Part shown: positions 291-51,240 of the stretch, piece by piece
Position numbering within the stretch: the first letter of the stretch is position 1
Layout: every line of letters starts with the position of its first letter
Program-made: the position numbers and the translations under genes
Notes under the pieces: model-generated
Told to the model about the DNA's origin: nothing
What the model saw: the letters and a program-made list of their open reading frames with translations, nothing else
Databases searched by the model: none
Source: Eledone cirrhosa
Lineage: Eukaryota
Reading direction: 5' to 3'
NCBI GenBank assembly: GCA_964016885.1
Contig: OZ024754.1
Location: 13,144,001-13,208,000, forward strand
Length of the DNA: 64,000 nt

Positions 291-379
291 ACACACACAC
301 GTGTGTGCATATGTATATAATATATATATATATTTATTTATTTATATATATATATGTGTGTGTGTGTATATGTATTTTA

Positions 380-443
380 GGTATCTAGTCTTTAATGCGC
401 CGAAATACCAACGATAATCAGCAGACTACTAATGAGGACATTT
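380..443 (+). ncRNA. Candidate non-circularly permuted hammerhead ribozyme (core mutated to CUAAUGA in this copy)
   Basis: GGTAT-C-TAGTCT / AATGCGCC-GAAATACC / AGACTA-CTAATGA-GGACATT; stems I, II and III can all pair. Confidence 0.5.
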
Positions 444-920
444 TATCTCTTGGTCTATTTTTATTCATATGTCCATGTTCGCAATAAGGCAGCACGCCAT
501 TCTTCATTCACATATTTTTTCCCTTCGCTGTGGTTCATATTTTTTCTGTCACCTTACTGCTATCACCTTTTCTCTCTCCTTCACCTGTTGACTTCCTCAA
601 CTCCCGCTGCTGGTCTGGTCACTCACTCTCGGCTGGCCCCTTCCTCACACTTTCACTCATCCCTTCTCTGCTTCTCCCCCTCTCTCTCACTTCCTCCCGT
701 CTGACCTGCTTGAATTTCTTTCCTCTATCAATCTTCTCGCGGCTCGGGCGTATCTATTTCTCCTCGTCAATTTGATTTGTCAGACTTAAGCCCACAGGAT
801 TCATTGACTTGTCTCTATTTTCCTCTCTTTGCTTTGCATTACTACCACGTGTTTGTTTCCTTCCCTCTGTGTTCCCACTGTCCCGATAACTTAATTGAGT
901 TATCGCTCGCACTGATTTTA

Positions 921-984
921 GGTATCTAGTCTTTAATGCGTCGAAATACCAACGATAATCAGCAGACTACTGATGAGGACATTT
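921..984 (+). ncRNA. Candidate non-circularly permuted hammerhead ribozyme (intact core)
   Basis: GGTAT-C(926)-TAGTCT, then AATGCGTC-GAAATACC, then AGACTA-CTGATGA(970-976)-GGACATT. Stem I 6 bp, stem III 5 bp, stem II GG-A-CATT/AATG-CG-TC. Confidence 0.6.
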
Positions 985-1004
985 TATCTCTTGGTCTATT
1001 TTTA

Positions 1005-1080
<76 letters not shown>

Positions 1081-8029: not shown

Positions 8030-8830
8030 CAGAATATACGAACAGGTTATAAGAAGAAGAAAAAAAGCTCATTAAACAGAACAGACAGATTGTGTAGAAT
8101 CATAAACTAAGACTAATAATATATTACTAAACCTTTAAAATGAAAACACCTTCTTGGCAATAAAATTCCACTAGCGTGCAATGCCGCGAACAAGCTATTA
8201 ATGACCAATGTGACTTACAAATTTGATTGTATAGAAGAAAGTTGTAAACTTCACGATTCAAACTGTTATATTGGCCACACAAGTACAATATTCTTTTATC
8301 ATCTACAGTTGTATTTACAAGGAGAAATTACAGTCTAATACATCACGCACCACAAAACAAAATCTGATAAAACGCAGAATTCTTATGCAGAATTACACCC
8401 AAAACTTTCAGATTAATAATGGAAGCGATACTAATAGCATATCAAAATGCTAATATAAAATACAGATAAAGTATACCAGTCATTATCAAAAACCACTGAG
8501 ACTGTTTAAGAAACGACAATAACAAACGACAAAAAGAAAAAAAAAAGATATTGTAATTTCAACGCTAACAAATACACATCTTGTTCGTTCATATGATCAG
8601 ATCTTGAAGTAGAAATACTTGATATAAAAAATTCGAAACACTCCTATCGACAGTTTTTCAACAGATGGTTAAATGCTTTTTTGAATCTACCTCTGCTCAC
8701 TCTCCTCTATCTTTCTATTTTTTCTATAATATCTCAGGCTATTTTCTGATGATAGACTAGCATCCGAAACGCTAGAGCTTTTCCTTCTATATTAATCGTG
8801 AAATTAATATATATCTACATTGAACTTCAG
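8030..8830 (+). pseudogene. Decayed PLE 3' part: GIY-YIG endonuclease remnant followed by a degenerate hammerhead (8746-8777)
   Basis: From 8201: MTNVTYKFDCIEESCKLHDSNCYIGHTST (VxY...C...YIG motif), preceded by KLRLIIYY. Downstream CTGATGA-TAGACTAGCATCC-GAAACGCT resembles the 1745 HHR. Confidence 0.7.
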
Positions 8831-13097: not shown

Positions 13098-13099
<2 letters not shown>

Positions 13100-13297
13100 C
13101 GAAGGAAAAGTGGTAAGTAACCAGGTGGACCATAACGCACCAAAGTACTCAATACTTAGGGTAGTAGAGTGGGTAATAGGAGTAAGTAAGACCCCGACGG
13201 CTGAGCTCAAGCCGTTTCGACGGCTAATTCTGTACTGAAATTACAGAATTAGCCGTCGAAACGGCTTGAGCTCAGCCGTCGGGGTCTTACTTACTCC

Positions 13298-13299
<2 letters not shown>
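13098..13299 (-). mobile_element. Fold-back PLE-end insert, family A
   Basis: Long arm plus short inverted arm, apex ~13235-13241, (TA)n on both sides. Carries the HHR 3' half CCGTC-GAAACGGCT-TGAGCTC-AGCCGT-C-GGGGTC. Confidence 0.8.
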
Positions 13300-13330
<31 letters not shown>

Positions 13331-13575: not shown

Positions 13576-13624
<49 letters not shown>

Positions 13625-13628
<4 letters not shown>

Positions 13629-13713
13629 AAATGGCGTGCTGCGTGGTTGCAAATGGGTTATATATGAATAAAATTAGTTCTTCATCAGTGATCTTCCGTT
13701 CATCGCTTTAAAG

Positions 13714-13717
<4 letters not shown>
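13625..13717 (-). mobile_element. Diverged fragment related to the 375-1008 element, with permuted-HHR remnants
   Basis: Minus strand: TGATCTT-TAAAGCGAT-GAACGG-AAGATCA-CTGATGA-AGAAC...TTTTATTCATAT...GCAGCACGCCATT, the latter matching 457-502. Confidence 0.6.
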
Positions 13718-13780
<63 letters not shown>

Positions 13781-13817
13781 GTATATATATACGTATATAT
13801 ATATATATATATATATA

Positions 13818-14075
13818 GGAAAAGTATGACCCCGACGGTAGAGCTCAAGCCGTTTCGACGGCTATTTCTGGACTAGATTTTAGAGGCTCCTGATGAGGCG
13901 GAGGGGATATTCACTTCAGTTTGGAGCCTTTAAAATCTAGTCCAGAAATAGCCGTCAAAACGGCTTGAGCTCTACCGTCGGGGTCATACTTTTTCCTATT
14001 TCCCACTCTACTATCCTAAGTATTGAGTACTCTGGTGCGTTATGGTCCATCTGGTTCCTTACCACAATTCCTTTG

Positions 14076-14078
<3 letters not shown>
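13818..14078 (+). mobile_element. Fold-back PLE-end insert, family A, retaining the CTGATGA core (13890-13896) in its loop
   Basis: Arms 13818-13890 / 13923-13998. CTGATGA-GGCGG...CCGTC-(G/A)AAACGG...CCGT-C gives the family's HHR with a long stem II insertion. Confidence 0.8.
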
Positions 14079-17424: not shown

Positions 17425-17565
17425 TTCAGTACAGAATTAGCCGTCGAAACGGCTTGAGCTCAGCCGTCGGGGTCTTACTTACTCCTATTACCCACTCTAC
17501 TACCCTAAGTATTGAGTACTTTGGTGCGTTATGGTCCACCTGGTTCCTTACCACTTTTCCCTCGC

Positions 17566-17566
<1 letters not shown>
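17425..17566 (+). mobile_element. Family A PLE-end copy, single arm
   Basis: Matches the reverse complement of 13098-13239; ends in (TA)n. Confidence 0.8.
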
Positions 17567-17656
<90 letters not shown>

Positions 17657-17660
<4 letters not shown>

Positions 17661-17830
17661 CAAAGAGGGTGTGGTAAGATACCAGGTGGATCATAACGCA
17701 GCAGAGTACTCGATACTTAGGGTAGTAGAGTGGGTAATAGGAAAAGAGTGAGGATCATGATGGCTGAGCTCCGACCGTTTCGACAGCTAGATCCGAACGC
17801 AGCTAGCTGCCGAAACGGCCGGAGCTCAGC
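17657..17830 (-). mobile_element. Family A fold-back copy (more diverged)
   Basis: Same layout as 13098-13299. Confidence 0.75.
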
Positions 17831-17913: not shown

Positions 17914-17930
17914 CCCTAGGAAGAGAAAAT

Positions 17931-18012
17931 GCTTCTCTGATGAGCTTTGGTTTTCCATCATGAATCCATCGGATTTATGAGGTTTTACAAAGCGAAACTG
18001 ATCAGTAAGGGC
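17931..18012 (+). ncRNA. Type I hammerhead ribozyme with extended stem II and palindromic stem III
   Basis: TTCT-CTGATGA(17937)-GCTTTG...TCATGAATCC/GGATTTATGA...CAAAGC-GAAACTGATCAGT-A-AGGG; inside a (TA)n-flanked insert 17911-18097. Confidence 0.85.
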
Positions 18013-18119: not shown

Positions 18120-18433
18120 AGTGGTAGAACACTGGAAGGTAATATCCGTAGTGGTAGAGCACTCAGTCCATGGGACGAGTTAGGTAGAAGTGGTTACACA
18201 ACAGTTAGTTCATCATACCGAGAACAATTGTTTCACCTTAGCGGATCCTCAGCTCGTAATGGACATGGTTATACGGCAGTAGTTCTGTATCAAATTGTTC
18301 AAGATCGCTAATGTACGCTGATCAATTACATGTTATTGTACTGAAACTGTTGAGAGTTAACCATGACCATTACGAGCTGAGGATCTACTAAGATGAAACA
18401 ATTGTTCTCGTTATGGTGAACTAACTGTTGTGT

Positions 18434-27670: not shown

Positions 27671-28952
27671 AAGAAAATACATAAATATTATATATATATA
27701 TAAAAATAAAAAAGTGGAAGGGTAAACAAATGCTAACTTTCTAGACATTAATCTTGATCTACTTACTGCCTCTTTTAAACCTTATCATAAACCTAACGAA
27801 AATCTTAGATATATACACAAAGAGTCTTGCCATCCCCCTATAGTTTTTAAAAATCTTATTCCCAAAATTAGCCGTAGGATTTCTGCCTTATCTTCGTCTC
27901 TAGACATTTTTAACAAAGCCGCCCCTTATTATAATAAAGCCCTTAATAACAGCGGCTTTACAGAACAGATTAAATATTTACCTACTCCTCCCCCTAAAAC
28001 TAACCACAATAATAGGAAAAGGAAAATTATTTGGTTTACACTCCCCTTATCTCTAACTGTCAAAACTAATGTAGGAAGGAAATTCCTTGACCTCTTAGAC
28101 AAACATTTTCCTCCTAATCATAGATATTATAAGATATTTAAAAGAAATGTAGTTAAAATCAGTTACTCTTGCTGCCCATCAATGAAGTCTAAAATCACCA
28201 ATTCTAATCGTACGAGAATAAATCCAGGATGCAGTTGCAGGAAGCCGGATGAATGCCCATTACAGGGCAAATGTAATAACAAATCCGTTGTATATGAGGC
28301 CAAAGTGACACCTTTAATTAACAACCAGACATCCAGGAGTGACCGATATGTTGGCATGACTCAGGACAGGTTCAAAACCAGGTTTTATGCACATGTTGCT
28401 TCTTTTAAACACTCTGATAAAAGAACAGCAACGGCTCTCGCAAATAAGGTGTGGGAATTCAAAGATAAAAACATTCCGTACTCTATCGATTGGTCTATTT
28501 TAGACCATCAGAGGGTATACCAAAGGGGCACAAAGAATTGTTCTTTGTGTACCACTGAAAAATTTAGGATTCTACAAAACTTGAAAACCACTTCAACTTG
28601 CCCGAACTCCAAGACCGAGATCTTCAGATATTGTTCTCACCTGAAATCACATCTGATCTATAACTGGATTGACATTCCTACGATGACTCAACCACCTTGT
28701 ACTTCTTTTCTGCTCTATACGCTTTACATCCACTACGATTTGTATTACTCTCTGAACTCACTTTCTGTACTCTTATATTTTTTTCTCCCTTATCTCCCCT
28801 TATATTTAAACTGTTTCCTATGTTATTTATTTTCCTTATTCCCCCCTACTTTCTACCTTACATACCCAACTTTTTTCTACCTTACATACCCACCTTTTTT
28901 ATTTATAGATATTTATTTCTGTATGTATGTGTTGTGTATATGTGTATGTGTG

Positions 28953-28983
<31 letters not shown>

Positions 28984-29203
28984 GTATGTAATTATATATA
29001 TATGTATGCATAATTACATACAGAGTGATTTAATGTTTATTTTCATTGATTATTTGCTCTAGGAATTTGTTGAGTGCTCTAAATCAGCTATAAATATTTA
29101 TACCTTTATCTATTTATTTATTTATTATTTCTCGTATTCCTAACTATTTGTTTACCCTTCCACTTTTTTATTTTTATATATATATATAATATTTATGTAT
29201 TTT

Positions 29204-30926: not shown

Positions 30927-30970
30927 AAATGGAATAGACATTGCAATACAACGAGAGGAAACATAATAGG

Positions 30971-31010
30971 ACCACTGATGAAGTCACAGGTTGTGACGAA
31001 ATAACTTTGA
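30971..31010 (+). ncRNA. Degenerate minimal hammerhead in PLE 3' UTR
   Basis: ACCA-CTGATGA-A-GTCACA(GGT)TGTGAC-GAAA; stem III decayed. Confidence 0.55.
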
Positions 31011-32325: not shown

Positions 32326-32454
32326 ATAATAAATTTGAAGAGTAAAATCCAAAGAGGGATAAATATATATAAAATATAATGACGTATTATCTTCGTTTTT
32401 TTTGTTTCGTTCTTTGCCAGGAAACGTTTCCACGAACCAAAGTATCGTCTTCCT

Positions 32455-32592
32455 GTCTTCCTTCGGTTGCAACGTTTTTCGAAATATTCACTTCTGCGTT
32501 CACAGATTGACTTTTTAGTTTTTTTAGTTTCAGAAGATCCCGTTAAGGGTGAAAGCAGCGATTCTTTGCTTAAACTTTAATCTGTTATTTTA

Positions 32593-32598
<6 letters not shown>
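32455..32598 (+). mobile_element. Short repeat ending in (TA)n; copies at 34936-35070 and (partial) 23490-23530
   Basis: Shared ...ATTCTTTGCTTAAACTTTAATCTGTTATTTTAATAAATATA end; HHR-like CAGAAGA-TCCC(GTTAA)GGGT-GAAA. Confidence 0.6.
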
Positions 32599-32690
<92 letters not shown>

Positions 32691-33041
32691 GGAAAATAAG
32701 ATTGGCTGTGAAGTTGCAATTAAGGTAGCTTAAAATGGAGTGAGAATAAGAAGAAAGCAAGAACGAACGGGGGAGGGGGGGGTCCTCATCAGTTTCTTAC
32801 CTTAAGTTTTTCACACATTGCTCGGTTTGTTGTGTTTTTCGCTGTTTTCTCTTTTCTTTTTCCTTCTATTTTCCTTCCCTCCTCCTCCATTTTCCCAATA
32901 ACTTACCCAGTTATTGAACCCTCTGGGCGGTAGATATATTGTCTTTGAATCGTGGACATATCCGAAACCCCTAGTAGACAACTGATGAGGAAAACTCCCC
33001 CGTCTCTTGCTTTCTTCTTATTCTCATTCCATTTTAAGCTA
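32691..33041. mobile_element. Fold-back insert (arms 32726-32794 / 32980-33041) with a candidate permuted hammerhead at 32929-32991 (+)
   Basis: GGTA[GATATA]TTGTCT...TCC-GAAACCCC...AGACAA-CTGATGA-GGA. Confidence 0.6.
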
Positions 33042-34917: not shown

Positions 34918-35116
34918 CTCATATATATATATATGTCTTCCTCCGGTTGCAACGTTTTTTGAAATATCCAGTTCTGCGTTTACAGATTGACTTTGTTAGT
35001 TTCAGAAGATCCCGTTAAGGGTGAAAGCAGCAATTCTTTGCTTAAACTTTAATCTGTTATTTTAATAAATATATATATATATATATAAAATTTATACTGT
35101 ATATATACTGTATATG

Positions 35117-36182
<1,066 letters not shown>

Positions 36183-36879: not shown

Positions 36880-36920
36880 ACATAAATCTTTCGTTGCACA
36901 TCTGCAACATCGTCAGTGGT
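36880..36920 (-). ncRNA. Minimal hammerhead-like motif in pLTR
   Basis: Reverse complement of 39647-39687. Confidence 0.6.
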
Positions 36921-37190: not shown

Positions 37191-39101
37191 TTATACTTCT
37201 CTTAGGTCAGTGTTGTTTGTTTGGGTGTTGTTGTTGTTCCACTCATTCTTTCTGTTTAGCTTTGGTCTTCTAATTTCTATTTCACTGGCCTCTCTGATTT
37301 GCCTATCTGCTGGGTCATTCCTATGTTTAGATATTATTCTAATTTCTATGTTGTCTATGTTACAGTCATGATGTTGTCTAGCATGTTCGTATAGTACTGA
37401 CCCGTTTTTTCGTCCTTTTAGTTCCCCCCAGTGTTGGTCTATCCTTTCACCTATGCTACGAGCTGTCTCACCTATGTATGTTGTTGTCGTGTTTCTGCAA
37501 GTACCCTCTGTACATCTTATGCTATAGACTACGTTTCTAGTTTTACAGTTTATCCGGGGGTTCACCTTACATATGATACATTTCCTATTGGTACAGTGGG
37601 TTTTCTTAAAAGGGTAGGTTTTGCTGATCAGGGATTTTATGGTGGTTCCTGGCTTTTCTACCACCTTTATTTTTAAGTGGGTCTTTCTCAGGGCCTTTCT
37701 ACACTGGTTAGCTAATTTCCCTCCAGGGGTGGCGTCCACAAACATGACACTCTGATATCTCTGGTTGTCGTACCATGATGTGGCCTTCCCTATCTTATGT
37801 CTAGCCCTATCTAAGCTATTCCATGATTTGCTCCTGTATAGTGGGCAAATTCCTTTCATGTCCAGTTCTATGAGGGTCTTATACTTTTCCATGGCTCCTT
37901 CGTATACTCTGACTCTGTCTCTTTGGTTGTAGCCAGAGAACTGCATGCGGTTGATGAAGTGTTGGATGTGTCCTTCCATTTCTGTTGGGTCGCACATGCT
38001 GGACACATTCTTCATCACTCGTACCAAATCTGCGATCAGAATATTAAACTTAGCACTACTGGACATTGCTGAGTTTTTGAGTATCAGGTATTTGGAGGCC
38101 ATGGGTTTAGCATAGTGTGAGTGGAGAATTTGGGCTCTCTCGTCTATAGTGTTAATCCAGAGTTCTGTGTCTAATACAGGTAGTCTATTGTTAGGGTGTT
38201 TGGAAGGGAAGTCTATAGTTACAGTTATACTCTGGTGTATGGAATTAGCTATCTGCTGGATGCTTTCCATCGTGCTACGTTCTAAATCAAACTTGTTAGT
38301 GCTCTCTAGTGGGGGTGTTCTTATAACTATATTGATATCGTCTACATAACGAGAGTACATGATGAGGTCTATGGAGCTTTCATTAAGGAGATCTTTAAGT
38401 CTCCTTTCCCACCATACCATGAAAAAGTTGGCAACATCGCCAGCTATGCTGACGCCGATGGCTGCTCCCTCATTTTGGGTGTAGATTTTCTCATTGAACT
38501 TAAATATGTGGCCCTTTAGGGTAGTTTTGATACTAGCCCCTATTGCATGTGCGACCATTTTTCTTACCTGATCAGTGTTTTGGGGGGTCCGTATAGCTTT
38601 GGTCCACCCAATCCACCTTCCTATGGGAGTCTTTTTAGCCATTGAGGTTATGGTGGGGGGTCTACCTCTTATAGGTCTACTAGGGCAGAAACATCTAAGG
38701 TCATGGCTGTCTAGGTAGTCAGTGTCGTAGGTAAGTCTAAGTAGGAGGCCCAGTTCGTCTGTGTCGACGTCGCAGAACTCCACCTCACTCTCAATGATCA
38801 TCTCCACACATCTTTTCACATCAAAATCAATGTTAATGGATGGGTACAGTGACACCACATCCATGCTGCCTATTATGCAGTTGGATAGGCTCCTGTTTTT
38901 GTTGCACTCACTGATTCTGCTGAGGAGGTCCTCTGTACTTTCACATACATCTGGGGACATCTTGATTATGGGGCGTATAACCATTGAGAGGAAGTAGGAG
39001 ATCCTGTAGTTGCTAGCTATATTAGCTCCGCATACAGGTCTTGTTGGTGGTCCTATTGTCGGGTCGTCGACTGTCTTGTGGTCTTTGCGGAGCCCATACA
39101 A
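37191..39101 (-). CDS. PLE reverse transcriptase + Cys-rich linker + GIY-YIG endonuclease (5'-truncated; frame open to the ~39134 junction)
   Basis: GSMDVVSLYPSI, YTQNEGAAIGVSIA, YSRYVDDI, LPVLDTELW, CTNRKCIICK..C, NVVYSIRC...YIGETARSIGERIDQH. Confidence 0.92.
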   Translation of the reverse strand: MYGLRKDHKTVDDPTIGPPTRPVCGANIASNYRISYFLSMVIRPIIKMSPDVCESTEDLLSRISECNKNRSLSNCIIGSMDVVSLYPSINIDFDVKRCVEMIIESEVEFCDVDTDELGLLLRLTYDTDYLDSHDLRCFCPSRPIRGRPPTITSMAKKTPIGRWIGWTKAIRTPQNTDQVRKMVAHAIGASIKTTLKGHIFKFNEKIYTQNEGAAIGVSIAGDVANFFMVWWERRLKDLLNESSIDLIMYSRYVDDINIVIRTPPLESTNKFDLERSTMESIQQIANSIHQSITVTIDFPSKHPNNRLPVLDTELWINTIDERAQILHSHYAKPMASKYLILKNSAMSSSAKFNILIADLVRVMKNVSSMCDPTEMEGHIQHFINRMQFSGYNQRDRVRVYEGAMEKYKTLIELDMKGICPLYRSKSWNSLDRARHKIGKATSWYDNQRYQSVMFVDATPGGKLANQCRKALRKTHLKIKVVEKPGTTIKSLISKTYPFKKTHCTNRKCIICKVNPRINCKTRNVVYSIRCTEGTCRNTTTTYIGETARSIGERIDQHWGELKGRKNGSVLYEHARQHHDCNIDNIEIRIISKHRNDPADRQIREASEIEIRRPKLNRKNEWNNNNTQTNNTDLREV

Positions 39102-39646
39102 GGGTGGTATGCCATTGTTAGACGCCTGGAAGTTGTTGGGGGAACTAAAAGGACGAAAAAACGGGTCAGTACTATACGAACATGCTAGACAACATCATGA
39201 CGGTAACATAGACAACATAGAAATTAGAATAATATCTAAACATAGGAATGACCCAGCAGATAGGCAAATCAGAGAGGCCAGTGAAATAGAAATTAGAAGA
39301 CCAAAGCTAAACAGAAAGAATGAGTGGAACAACAACAACACCCAAACAAACAACACTGACCTAAGAGAAGTATAAATAAATAAGAAAATTAAATTAAATA
39401 AAATAAGATAAATAAATACATACACAAGCACATAAACACACACTAGTCACCCAGCAGACACAACACTATACACACTAGTCACACATCACACATAACACTA
39501 TACACACACGCAAACGCATGCGCAAAGAAGACAAAATAAAATAAGATAAACAAACAAGCAAATAAATAAATAAATATATAGACAGACTGAACAAAAAAAA
39601 AAATGGCGTAGACATACAACACAACAGGAGGAACAATGAATATAAC

Positions 39647-39687
39647 ACCACTGACGATGTTGCAGATGTGCAACGAAAGATTTATGT
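39647..39687 (+). ncRNA. Minimal hammerhead-like motif in pLTR
   Basis: ACCA-CTGACGA-T-GTTGCA(GATG)TGCAAC-GAAAGATTT-A-TGT. Confidence 0.6.
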
Positions 39688-39903
39688 AAACTATATATAT
39701 ATGTGTTTGTCTATATTGTATCTGTATTATTTTTGACCGCCGGTCAGTCAATGGCAACATTGAGGACCGAGTAAGTTAGATCGCAGATATATATATATAA
39801 AAGACAGCGAGAAGCGAAAACCAACCAAACAGTGAGTGTGTTCTGTTATTAATTCTGGCAATATTACGCAAATATGACCCTCCCCAAATATAACAACATA
39901 TAC

Positions 39904-47414: not shown

Positions 47415-47449
<35 letters not shown>

Positions 47450-47452
<3 letters not shown>

Positions 47453-47640
47453 AACCAGTAAGACCCCGACGGCTGAGCTCAAGCCGTTTCGACGGCTAAT
47501 TCTGGACTAGAATTAGCCGTCGAAACGGCTTGAGCTCAGCCGTCGGAGTCTTACTGGTTCCTATCACCCACTCTACTACCCTAAGTATTGAGTACTTTGG
47601 TGCGTTATGGTCCACCTGGCTCCTTACCACATTTCCTTCG

Positions 47641-48452: not shown

Positions 48453-48636
48453 GTGGAACACTGGAAGGTAATATCCGTAGTGGTAGATCACTCAGTCCAG
48501 GGGACGAGCTAGATAGAAGTGGTTGCACAACAGTTAGTTCACCATACCGAGAACAATTGTTTCACCTTCGCGGATCTTCAGCTCGGGATGTATACATATA
48601 CTCTATCACTACAGATATTACCTTCCAGTGTTCCGC

Positions 48637-50638: not shown

Positions 50639-51156
50639 ATACTTGTTATGAAAGTCTGTATTAAAACCTAAAATGTAATACTATCGGATAGTCATGCTGC
50701 CAATAAACCATGCGCACTTGTAGAGTTTCATTTCACTTTTTTCTTATTTGTTTTATTATGGAACAGGTAATTGAAACATCGGATGAGTCATGAGACTGCA
50801 GCTTTACAGAATCACTGACTTGATTCAATAAATCATATACAACAGGACTTATTTAGATCGAGACTACTAATTATATTGAACTAATATCAGATTAAATTTT
50901 TAACTATTTTTCACAGTGAAAATGCTACGTTGAAACTAGCTTAACCGCTCAACATTTCTAAAAATACGATTCTAAAATGTCTATATATATATATAAGGTT
51001 CTTAATGTTATCTACATCCTTAGTTATTATAATTTTATTATTTTTATCTTCATTTTTATTATCGTATATCTTTGTAAGACATTAGTGTATGTAAACTCCA
51101 TATTCTTCAGAGTTTCTGGCTTGTATCTGCCGAAATTACCTCTTGTTGTTTTGATT

Positions 51157-51194
51157 GCCCTGATGAGTCCTTAATAAGACGAAACATTGTCGGC
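51157..51194 (+). ncRNA. Minimal type I hammerhead ribozyme
   Basis: GCC-CTGATGA-GTC(CTTAATAA)GAC-GAAACATTGT-C-GGC followed by AATAAA, near the 3' end of a (TA)n-flanked insert ~50637-51243. Confidence 0.85.
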
Positions 51195-51240
51195 TAATAA
51201 AAACTTTTGATGTATTAAAGGATTTTTTGTTTTACTCTCT

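Follow-up and report, generated by a model that had tools for sequence, protein, structure and literature searches.

A 93-nt insert lies between (TA)n tracts at 13625-13717 of the window, the whole 64,000-nt stretch of DNA analysed here, and raises the question of whether a self-cleaving RNA left it there, as the initial annotation proposed from a compensatory stem I and a 5' end at the predicted cleavage site. The minus-strand letters and the compensatory stem I were confirmed as described, and the insert is made up of the following parts.

13625..13717, minus strand: the 93-nt insert, an internally deleted relative of a repeat family, beginning at the predicted cut site with an uncertainty of 1 nt, or of 6 nt at most
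13718..13817: (TA)n flank on the 5' side of the insert (tract also counted from 13717)
13711..13717, minus strand: c, the stem I strand after the predicted cut, UGAUCUU
13702..13706, minus strand: d', the strand in stem II position before the GAA block, GCGAU
13698..13701, minus strand: GAAC in the GAAA position, then a 14-nt deletion (3' strand of stem III and its extension)
13689..13695, minus strand: c', the second stem I strand, AAGAUCA
13682..13688, minus strand: CUGAUGA core, intact
13625..13677, minus strand: downstream family sequence, 77-80% identical to 455-504 and 35134-35183, its end UUCAU adjoining (TA)n
13576..13624: (TA)n flank on the 3' side of the insert

Read from 13717 to 13682 on the minus strand, the insert gives UGAUCUU, UAAA, GCGAU, GAAC, GG, AAGAUCA and CUGAUGA, followed by 57 nt to the (TA)n. 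Stem I was indeed changed yet paired: all six pairs were kept through two double changes (pair 2 from A-U to G-C, pair 3 from G-C to A-U), and a seventh was gained. The GAA segment reported between the stem I strands is present, but it actually reads GAAC and is followed by the deletion of the 3' strand of stem III. About 15 nt are also gone after CUGAUGA, and the upstream partner strand of GCGAU (13702-13706) is missing from the truncated insert. What is left of a hammerhead is a CUGANGA core beside stem I; GAAA, stem III and the NUH cut block are lacking, the upstream block being absent. Because the 3' strand of stem III is lost, GAAA has become GAAC and about 15 nt are missing, the insert is unable to cut itself. 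The 93-mer folded no better than its shuffles (z -0.16), and Rfam hammerhead models gave no match at E up to 5 on either the 93-mer or the intact motif copy at 35571. Its homology to the main family, as judged by alignment (71/90 and 42/55 aligned bases identical), is real. The insert is a dead remnant with real stem I covariation, and both inferences drawn from it at first need its deletions to be late. Covariation supports stem I, but an insert without stem III cannot back the whole fold; stem III and its extension helix also covary in another copy in the window, at 32939.

BLAST and profile searches of the 64-kb window placed the insert in a (TA)n-inserted family together with three other elements.

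374..1008, plus strand: about 1.2 units of the family (unit 541 nt), with a motif at each end and cuts predicted at 385/386 and 926/927
35116..35675, plus strand: family element of about 1.07 units, starting about 51 nt downstream of the cut position
32690..33041, plus strand: third subfamily with an inverted 5' piece (32690-32800) and GACA for GAAA

The element at 374-1008 starts 12 nt upstream of its first predicted cut. Both it and the element at 35116-35675 slightly exceed one unit (about 541 nt) and carry the motif region in duplicate, at their two ends. Family copies terminate in UUCAU(A)-like sites adjoining (TA)n. A degenerate pattern written from the family copies matched four copies and nothing in 100 shuffles, which, for a pattern built from the copies themselves, shows only that the motif is no chance word; pattern scans of metagenome contigs and of viral contigs gave no match. 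A 147-nt flank is duplicated at 32454-32600 and 34934-35072 (90% identical), each copy followed by (TA)n with a different family member, which suggests that the members inserted independently into pre-existing TA tracts. The microsatellite load of the DNA and a SINE of an octopus type suggest a cephalopod host.

By the four-helix descriptor, one complete motif stands in the window.

35571..35641, plus strand: complete four-helix motif, the sole one in the window
35571-75, plus strand: d
35577-82, plus strand: a
35586-90, plus strand: b
35591, plus strand: C17
35592-97, plus strand: c
35603-07, plus strand: d'
35608-11, plus strand: GAAA
35611-15, plus strand: b'
35622-27, plus strand: a'
35629-34, plus strand: c'
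35635-41, plus strand: CUGAUGA

Its strands follow one another as d, a, b, UH|c, UUAA(U), d', GAAA, b', a', c', CUGAUGA. Stem I is formed by c/c' and stem III by b/b', with a/a' as an extension of the latter, and d/d' ends at G12. The block order in the family is cut site, GAAA, CUGAUGA (S-G-C), and intact copies hold every core letter of a hammerhead; the copy at 35571-35641 has CUGANGA, GAAA, NUH and stems I and III. Stem I was paired in 5/5 motif copies in the window, and stem III (GGUAU/AUACC, or GAUAU/AUAUC in the 32939 copy) in 4/4 copies having both strands. The 32939 copy, of the third subfamily, changed pair 2 of stem I to U-A, a double change different from that of the insert, and also covaries in stems III and a, with helix d/d' broken. 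Five pairs change on both sides, against 1.5 in shuffles, and none of 500 shuffles reached five, a figure that is no probability for related sequences. The four-helix descriptor matched once in the window and once in 100 shuffled windows; the descriptor of stems I and III matched twice in each.

The partner of d' is central to the fold. In the 35571 copy, d' (GCGAA) pairs with UUCGC upstream of the whole motif, just before the a/a' helix CUGAUU/AAUCAG. Helix d/d' is complete (5-6 bp) in one of the three window copies with both strands, 60% of its cells being paired; no double-sided change was found among these three, and the pair beside G12 in the 35571 copy is U-A, not G-C. One contig set and three RAD runs, which may derive from the window's own species or sample and do not reach the insert's subfamily, were aligned to 374-935 at 80% likeness. 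CUGAUGA was restored at 431 in 400/400, 371/371 and 357/359 reads of the three RAD runs, and AA preceded GAAA in 377/405, ~351/376 and ~333/357 (~93%); this majority fits d as read in the 35571 copy. AA is absent from about 7% of the RAD reads and from 29% of the contig depth. We consider it probable that d/d' represents stem II, in which case the 5' strand of stem II would not be joined to A9. Another UUCGC about 45 nt after the core could pair with d' in the main family, with no double change and with no counterpart among the Naiad examples below. In the reads, a local GGA/UCC hairpin follows CUGAUGA; a type III reading, with the GAAA block downstream of CUGAUGA, was rejected, neither the copies nor the majority loose end having a GAAA behind this hairpin.

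Naiads are Penelope-like elements that dominate many invertebrate genomes and insert at (TA)n targets, with partial tandems and inverted 5' pieces (PMC8557442), and all three of these features are present in the window family. They were reported to be without canonical hammerheads, the halves of the core being sometimes apart, and their cephalopod members to be old remnants (PMC8557442). We searched the published Naiad consensus file (PMC8557442) for the word CUGANGA and judged the layout by eye, without an alignment test; such a search misses words split across lines, and 10 of 43 CTGAAGA places were listed. The four-helix layout was seen in 11 of the 24 non-coding CUGANGA contexts listed (8 distinct sequences, 7 genera, 4 phyla), namely in Beroe, one Clytia, two Morbakka, three Acropora, Eulimnadia, two Octopus and Euprymna, the first three genera being named by file order. 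Of the remaining 13, six followed the ordinary order, four of them nematode records, and seven were unplaced.

The eight Naiad sequences differ in every helix. Stem I occurs as UAGGAU/AUCCUA, GAGGA/UCCUC, UUUUC/GAAAA, UCGA/UCGA, GGAAG/CUUCC, CUGCCC/GGGCAG and UUGUUU/AAACAA, and has 2 bp only in Beroe. Helix d/d' covaries by eye (GGCUCC/GGAGCC, GGCCCC/GGGGCC, GGGGA/UCCCC, GACGCC/GGCGUC, GACACC/GGUGUC and others), with 4-6 pairs (4/6 in Euprymna) and a G-C pair beside G12 in 7/8 distinct sequences. The cut triplet is NUH in 8/8 (GUA, AUA, AUC, UUC, GUU), helix a has 5-15 bp, and in Acropora, Morbakka and Eulimnadia a spacer of 0-1 nt connects a with b on one strand. CUGANGA, GAAA, an A-U at the base of stem III and a non-G at the cut are kept across the four phyla while the stems vary freely. 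The UUAAU linker is common to two Naiad sequences and the window family; a word search of the published consensus file for three 13-nt stem I and core words of the family found none. Given the 3' motif layout shared by eye, the window family is likely a non-autonomous Naiad-type Penelope-like element. We also observed that the family body contains GGACUUAAGC at 780-795 and 35455-35470; perhaps by chance, Darwinula Naiad records have this word ahead of CUGACGA. In the supplement of PMC8557442, the Naiad records of spiders and ostracods show CCCC-CUGACGA in another context and may hold further arrangements.

The features labelled 'HHR_core' and 'HHR_half_core' in PMC8557442 lie in the same host elements, with the same (TA)n target and with the core halves apart in the 3' UTR; Naiad_Ovul and Naiad_Esco were flagged half-core there, and no fold or cut site is proposed in the passages available to us. 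The missing canonical hammerheads had been taken to indicate that Naiads can do without the ribozyme (PMC8557442). A conserved rearranged motif makes this directly testable, since it names the strands, the predicted cut site and the compensatory mutants.

We favour a reading in which the insert is a broken copy of this likely Naiad-type (TA)n family, whose intact copies carry a rearranged hammerhead predicted to cut as a dimer. In hammerheads, stems II and III stack on each other, stem I is placed alongside stem II, and stem III points away from both I and II (PMC4209133). A three-way junction would be formed by helix a and the distal ends of stems I and II (spacers of 0-3 nt plus the linker), and, helix a being continuous with stem III, one molecule could not close the ring with a formed. 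The joining of a and b by 0-1 nt, together with a stem III that points away, favours a pairing across two motifs. The loop of one (c and d') would then pair with the flanks of the second (d and c'-CUGAUGA), which would work at any hairpin length, and two motifs in one tandem transcript would cut each other to yield unit-length RNA beginning at c. We lean slightly towards this part of the scheme, in which the a-b hairpin cannot fold back on its own core and paired motifs cut each other to release unit-length RNA from c. The copy at 35566-35650 folds the a-b hairpin (z -0.8), and that at 901-985 does not. Dimeric action has been proposed for other Penelope-like hammerheads, which tolerate one extra base at the A9-10.1 position (PMC4209133). 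The A9-10.1 link would be missing altogether in the two-motif model, and a hammerhead without it contradicts an assumption of Eckert 2023 (PMC10085705).

The more general claim, that an active hammerhead of a seventh arrangement is present in Naiads and in the non-coding elements derived from them, with stems I and II formed only between two copies and cutting confined to tandems, is one that we advance tentatively and place just short of an even chance. Such an arrangement would have the CUGANGA block cut loose from stem II, giving four blocks. If true, it would be a natural form with the A9-10.1 link broken, outside the Eckert 2023 scheme and current search descriptors, and the first non-circularly permuted ribozyme in animal genomes, and it would explain the 'missing' Naiad ribozymes. 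An obligate two-copy ribozyme would also let an element detect tandem transcripts by simple means.

The same four helices might instead form a real hammerhead within a single molecule, helix a melting and serving as an off-switch. With a open, the linkers (at least 7 nt) would be long enough to span the core, as inferred from helix lengths, and the validated type-SGC ribozymes are multiply pseudoknotted monomers (PMC10085705). We nevertheless find this unlikely, as helix a covaries and reaches 5-15 bp in Naiads, and all four helices coexist only in the two-motif model.

For the insertion step, a Penelope-like reverse transcriptase would prime on nicked (TA)n at an internal UUCAU(A) about 125 nt downstream, copy to the cut end and stop, and the two deletions would have arisen during or after copying; the insert would be a short copy from a second UUCAU(A)-like site back to the cut end. 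The UUCAU(A)-like ends beside (TA)n fit priming on nicked (TA)n, and we regard this course, from internal priming through copying to the cut end to deletions during or after copying, as evenly balanced between true and false. The insert's 5' end had been placed exactly at the first base of stem I. A start near the predicted cut stands, but the junction is uncertain by 1-6 nt: it cannot be fixed exactly because the first U continues the TA register, and up to 5 upstream bases would be indistinguishable from (TA)n if the cut-site block of this subfamily resembled that of the 32939 copy. The insert likely begins at the predicted cut.

Counted from the cut, the elements of the window have their 5' ends at 0 (the insert), -12, about +51 and about -140, the last element carrying an inverted piece that starts near +35; one of four elements starts at the predicted cut. 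One further locus in the reads, seen in 3/3 RAD runs (2 starts, 30-41 reads per mate), connects 386/387 with 406/405 of the opposite strand, and because only 13 bases are left of 386 it is taken as a copy beginning at the cut with an inverted piece ahead. Reads stopping at 386 account for at most 26-33% of core reads by the depth step, and the 386/387 inversion locus alone for 14-19%. The unit joint 914->374 was crossed by 135, 152 and 146 reads in the three RAD runs (10-15 starts), at least two thirds of the RAD core reads pass through the predicted cut site, and no loose end at 386 was found among 24 of 280 listed. Mapping 5' ends over the window and the RAD reads thus uncovered a second locus at the site but no dominant peak, and the view of the insert's 5' end as the product of a cleaved RNA is plausible, with one further locus starting at the site, although three of the four window elements do not. 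From the 386/387 locus and the depth step, cut RNA was likely used at times as the copying template, and for most family copies the template was likely uncut or circular RNA. An anole Penelope-like element has uncut RNA as its main substrate; its insertion proceeds without need of cleavage and zero reads begin at the cut site (PMC11167929).

This preponderance of copies passing through the site suits a different account, in which the motif is a conserved non-catalytic signal of hammerhead descent, for example for the reverse transcriptase, and the insert's 5' end a chance truncation or a stall at a stem. Hammerhead cleavage is dispensable in another Penelope-like element (PMC11167929), and all five 5' ends in the window fall within -140 to +51, so that one match among four elements has a 5-15% chance. 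Such a signal is a quite unlikely explanation in our judgement: CUGANGA, GAAA, the A-U at the stem III base, the non-G cut and the G-C at G12 are kept in four phyla, and an independent locus begins at 386/387.

We compared the motif with known hammerheads and related systems. The family lacks the circularly permuted C-G-S order of types I, II and III, its own order being S-G-C. The type-SGC hammerhead HRIMA-1 has the same order of cut site, GAAA and CUGAnGA and all core letters, with a short linker likewise joining the stem I strand to the stem II strand before GAAA (PMC10085705). The 5' strand of the SGC stem II, however, follows directly after CUGAnGA, whereas that of the window family lies upstream of the whole motif, which also has a helix extending stem III. 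SGC RNAs came from metatranscriptomes, none being reported in PMC10085705 from genomes of known organisms. Eckert 2023 (PMC10085705) assumed three unbreakable blocks, which gives six possible orders, and the four-helix layout, as read from the sequence, lies outside these six permutations. Minimal type I hammerheads also sit in Penelope-like repeats and are proposed dimers, but they have the C-G-S order and a local stem II and dimerise via a palindromic stem III (PMC4209133); the window family has a local stem III and would instead share stems I and II. Non-LTR retrozymes are likewise non-coding units of a few hundred bases, with partial tandems and a ribozyme motif per unit, and, like the window family, were likely moved by Penelope-like proteins; they are defined by type I hammerheads (PMC7229834; bioRxiv 10.64898/2026.07.22.740005), whereas the window family lacks a type I hammerhead in each unit. 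In titles and abstracts on hammerheads, Penelope-like elements and retrozymes, a search with most subscription journals outside its scope, no description of the four-helix fold was found, and the family motif is predicted to be a candidate hammerhead in a strand order so far unreported. The window scan with Rfam gave no hammerhead at gathering score, and only microRNA-type matches, on palindromes and microsatellites, among 150 of 404 listed. Weak C/D snoRNA matches in Rfam (E 0.93 and 0.59, far below gathering scores) were rejected as explained by the UGAUGA word.

The fold implied by the initial annotation, an ordinary type-SGC hammerhead with stem II formed by the strand right after CUGAUGA, of which the insert would be a decayed member, proved incomplete. 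The block order is S-G-C, and in the copy at 970 and in the majority reads the G-to-C linker could form a helix with the sequence after CUGAUGA, like the SGC interaction helix (PMC10085705). In place of a stem II strand 0-2 nt after CUGAnGA, however, the strands after CUGAUGA and before GAAA gave runs of at best 2, 3, 0, 0 and 1 pairs in the five copies, and 0 in the majority read form (93%), and a plain SGC stem II was rejected on these counts. The best case, the 970 copy, needs one extra nucleotide for its 3 pairs (GAC/GUC). In PMC8557442, moreover, all 8 distinct examples from Naiads have the strand before GAAA paired upstream, not downstream. Overall, the ordinary SGC fold is improbable. 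Compared with 35603-35660 (plus strand), the 970 copy (938-985, plus strand) no longer has the local hairpin that follows CUGAUGA, and GUC precedes its GAAA; a true SGC stem II of 3 bp could form in this copy, which may represent a minor subfamily in transition.

In a neutral-decay simulation at 20-30% divergence, a test picked after the pattern was seen, six stem I pairs were kept with at least four changes in 0.06-0.2% of trials, and in 0.4-0.9% when exactly four changes were required. That the stem I changes are chance transitions or a DNA-level inverted-repeat correction in one old copy, without RNA structure, would suit a single copy whose four changes are all transitions, which restore pairing whenever both sides change, but is very improbable given these simulated frequencies and the 32939 copy, where stem I shows a double transversion and both sides have changed in stems III and a.

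Other hammerhead-like and Penelope-like features were also observed in the window. Ordinary-order type I hammerhead-like motifs of the minimal Penelope-like kind stand at 1742-1790, 8740-8790, 17930-18000, 30968-31010, 39645-39690 and 51150-51195 (plus strand) and at 36880-36920 (minus strand); several of the seven have one extra base after CUGANGA, and none reaches the Rfam gathering score. A second family, with CUGA(G/A)GA, GAAAC and the palindromic stem III AACAAUUGUU, occurs at 18370-18420 (plus strand), 18200-18260 (minus strand) and 48530-48590 (minus strand), the pair at 18.2-18.4 kb being in inverted orientation. Another (TA)n-inserted family forms long fold-backs at 13099-13300, 13818-14076, 47448-47564 and 17521-17703 and, by eye, reads CUGAUGA-GGCGG ... 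CCGUC-GAAA with a 45-nt loop II in ordinary type I order. Two Penelope-like reading frames, 27726-28991 (plus strand) and 37191-39194 (minus strand), run by eye from a reverse transcriptase to a GIY-YIG-like end; the Pfam scan gave no match in the first and a weak RVT_1 match (E 2e-4) in the second, which is flanked by inverted repeats carrying a hammerhead-like motif.
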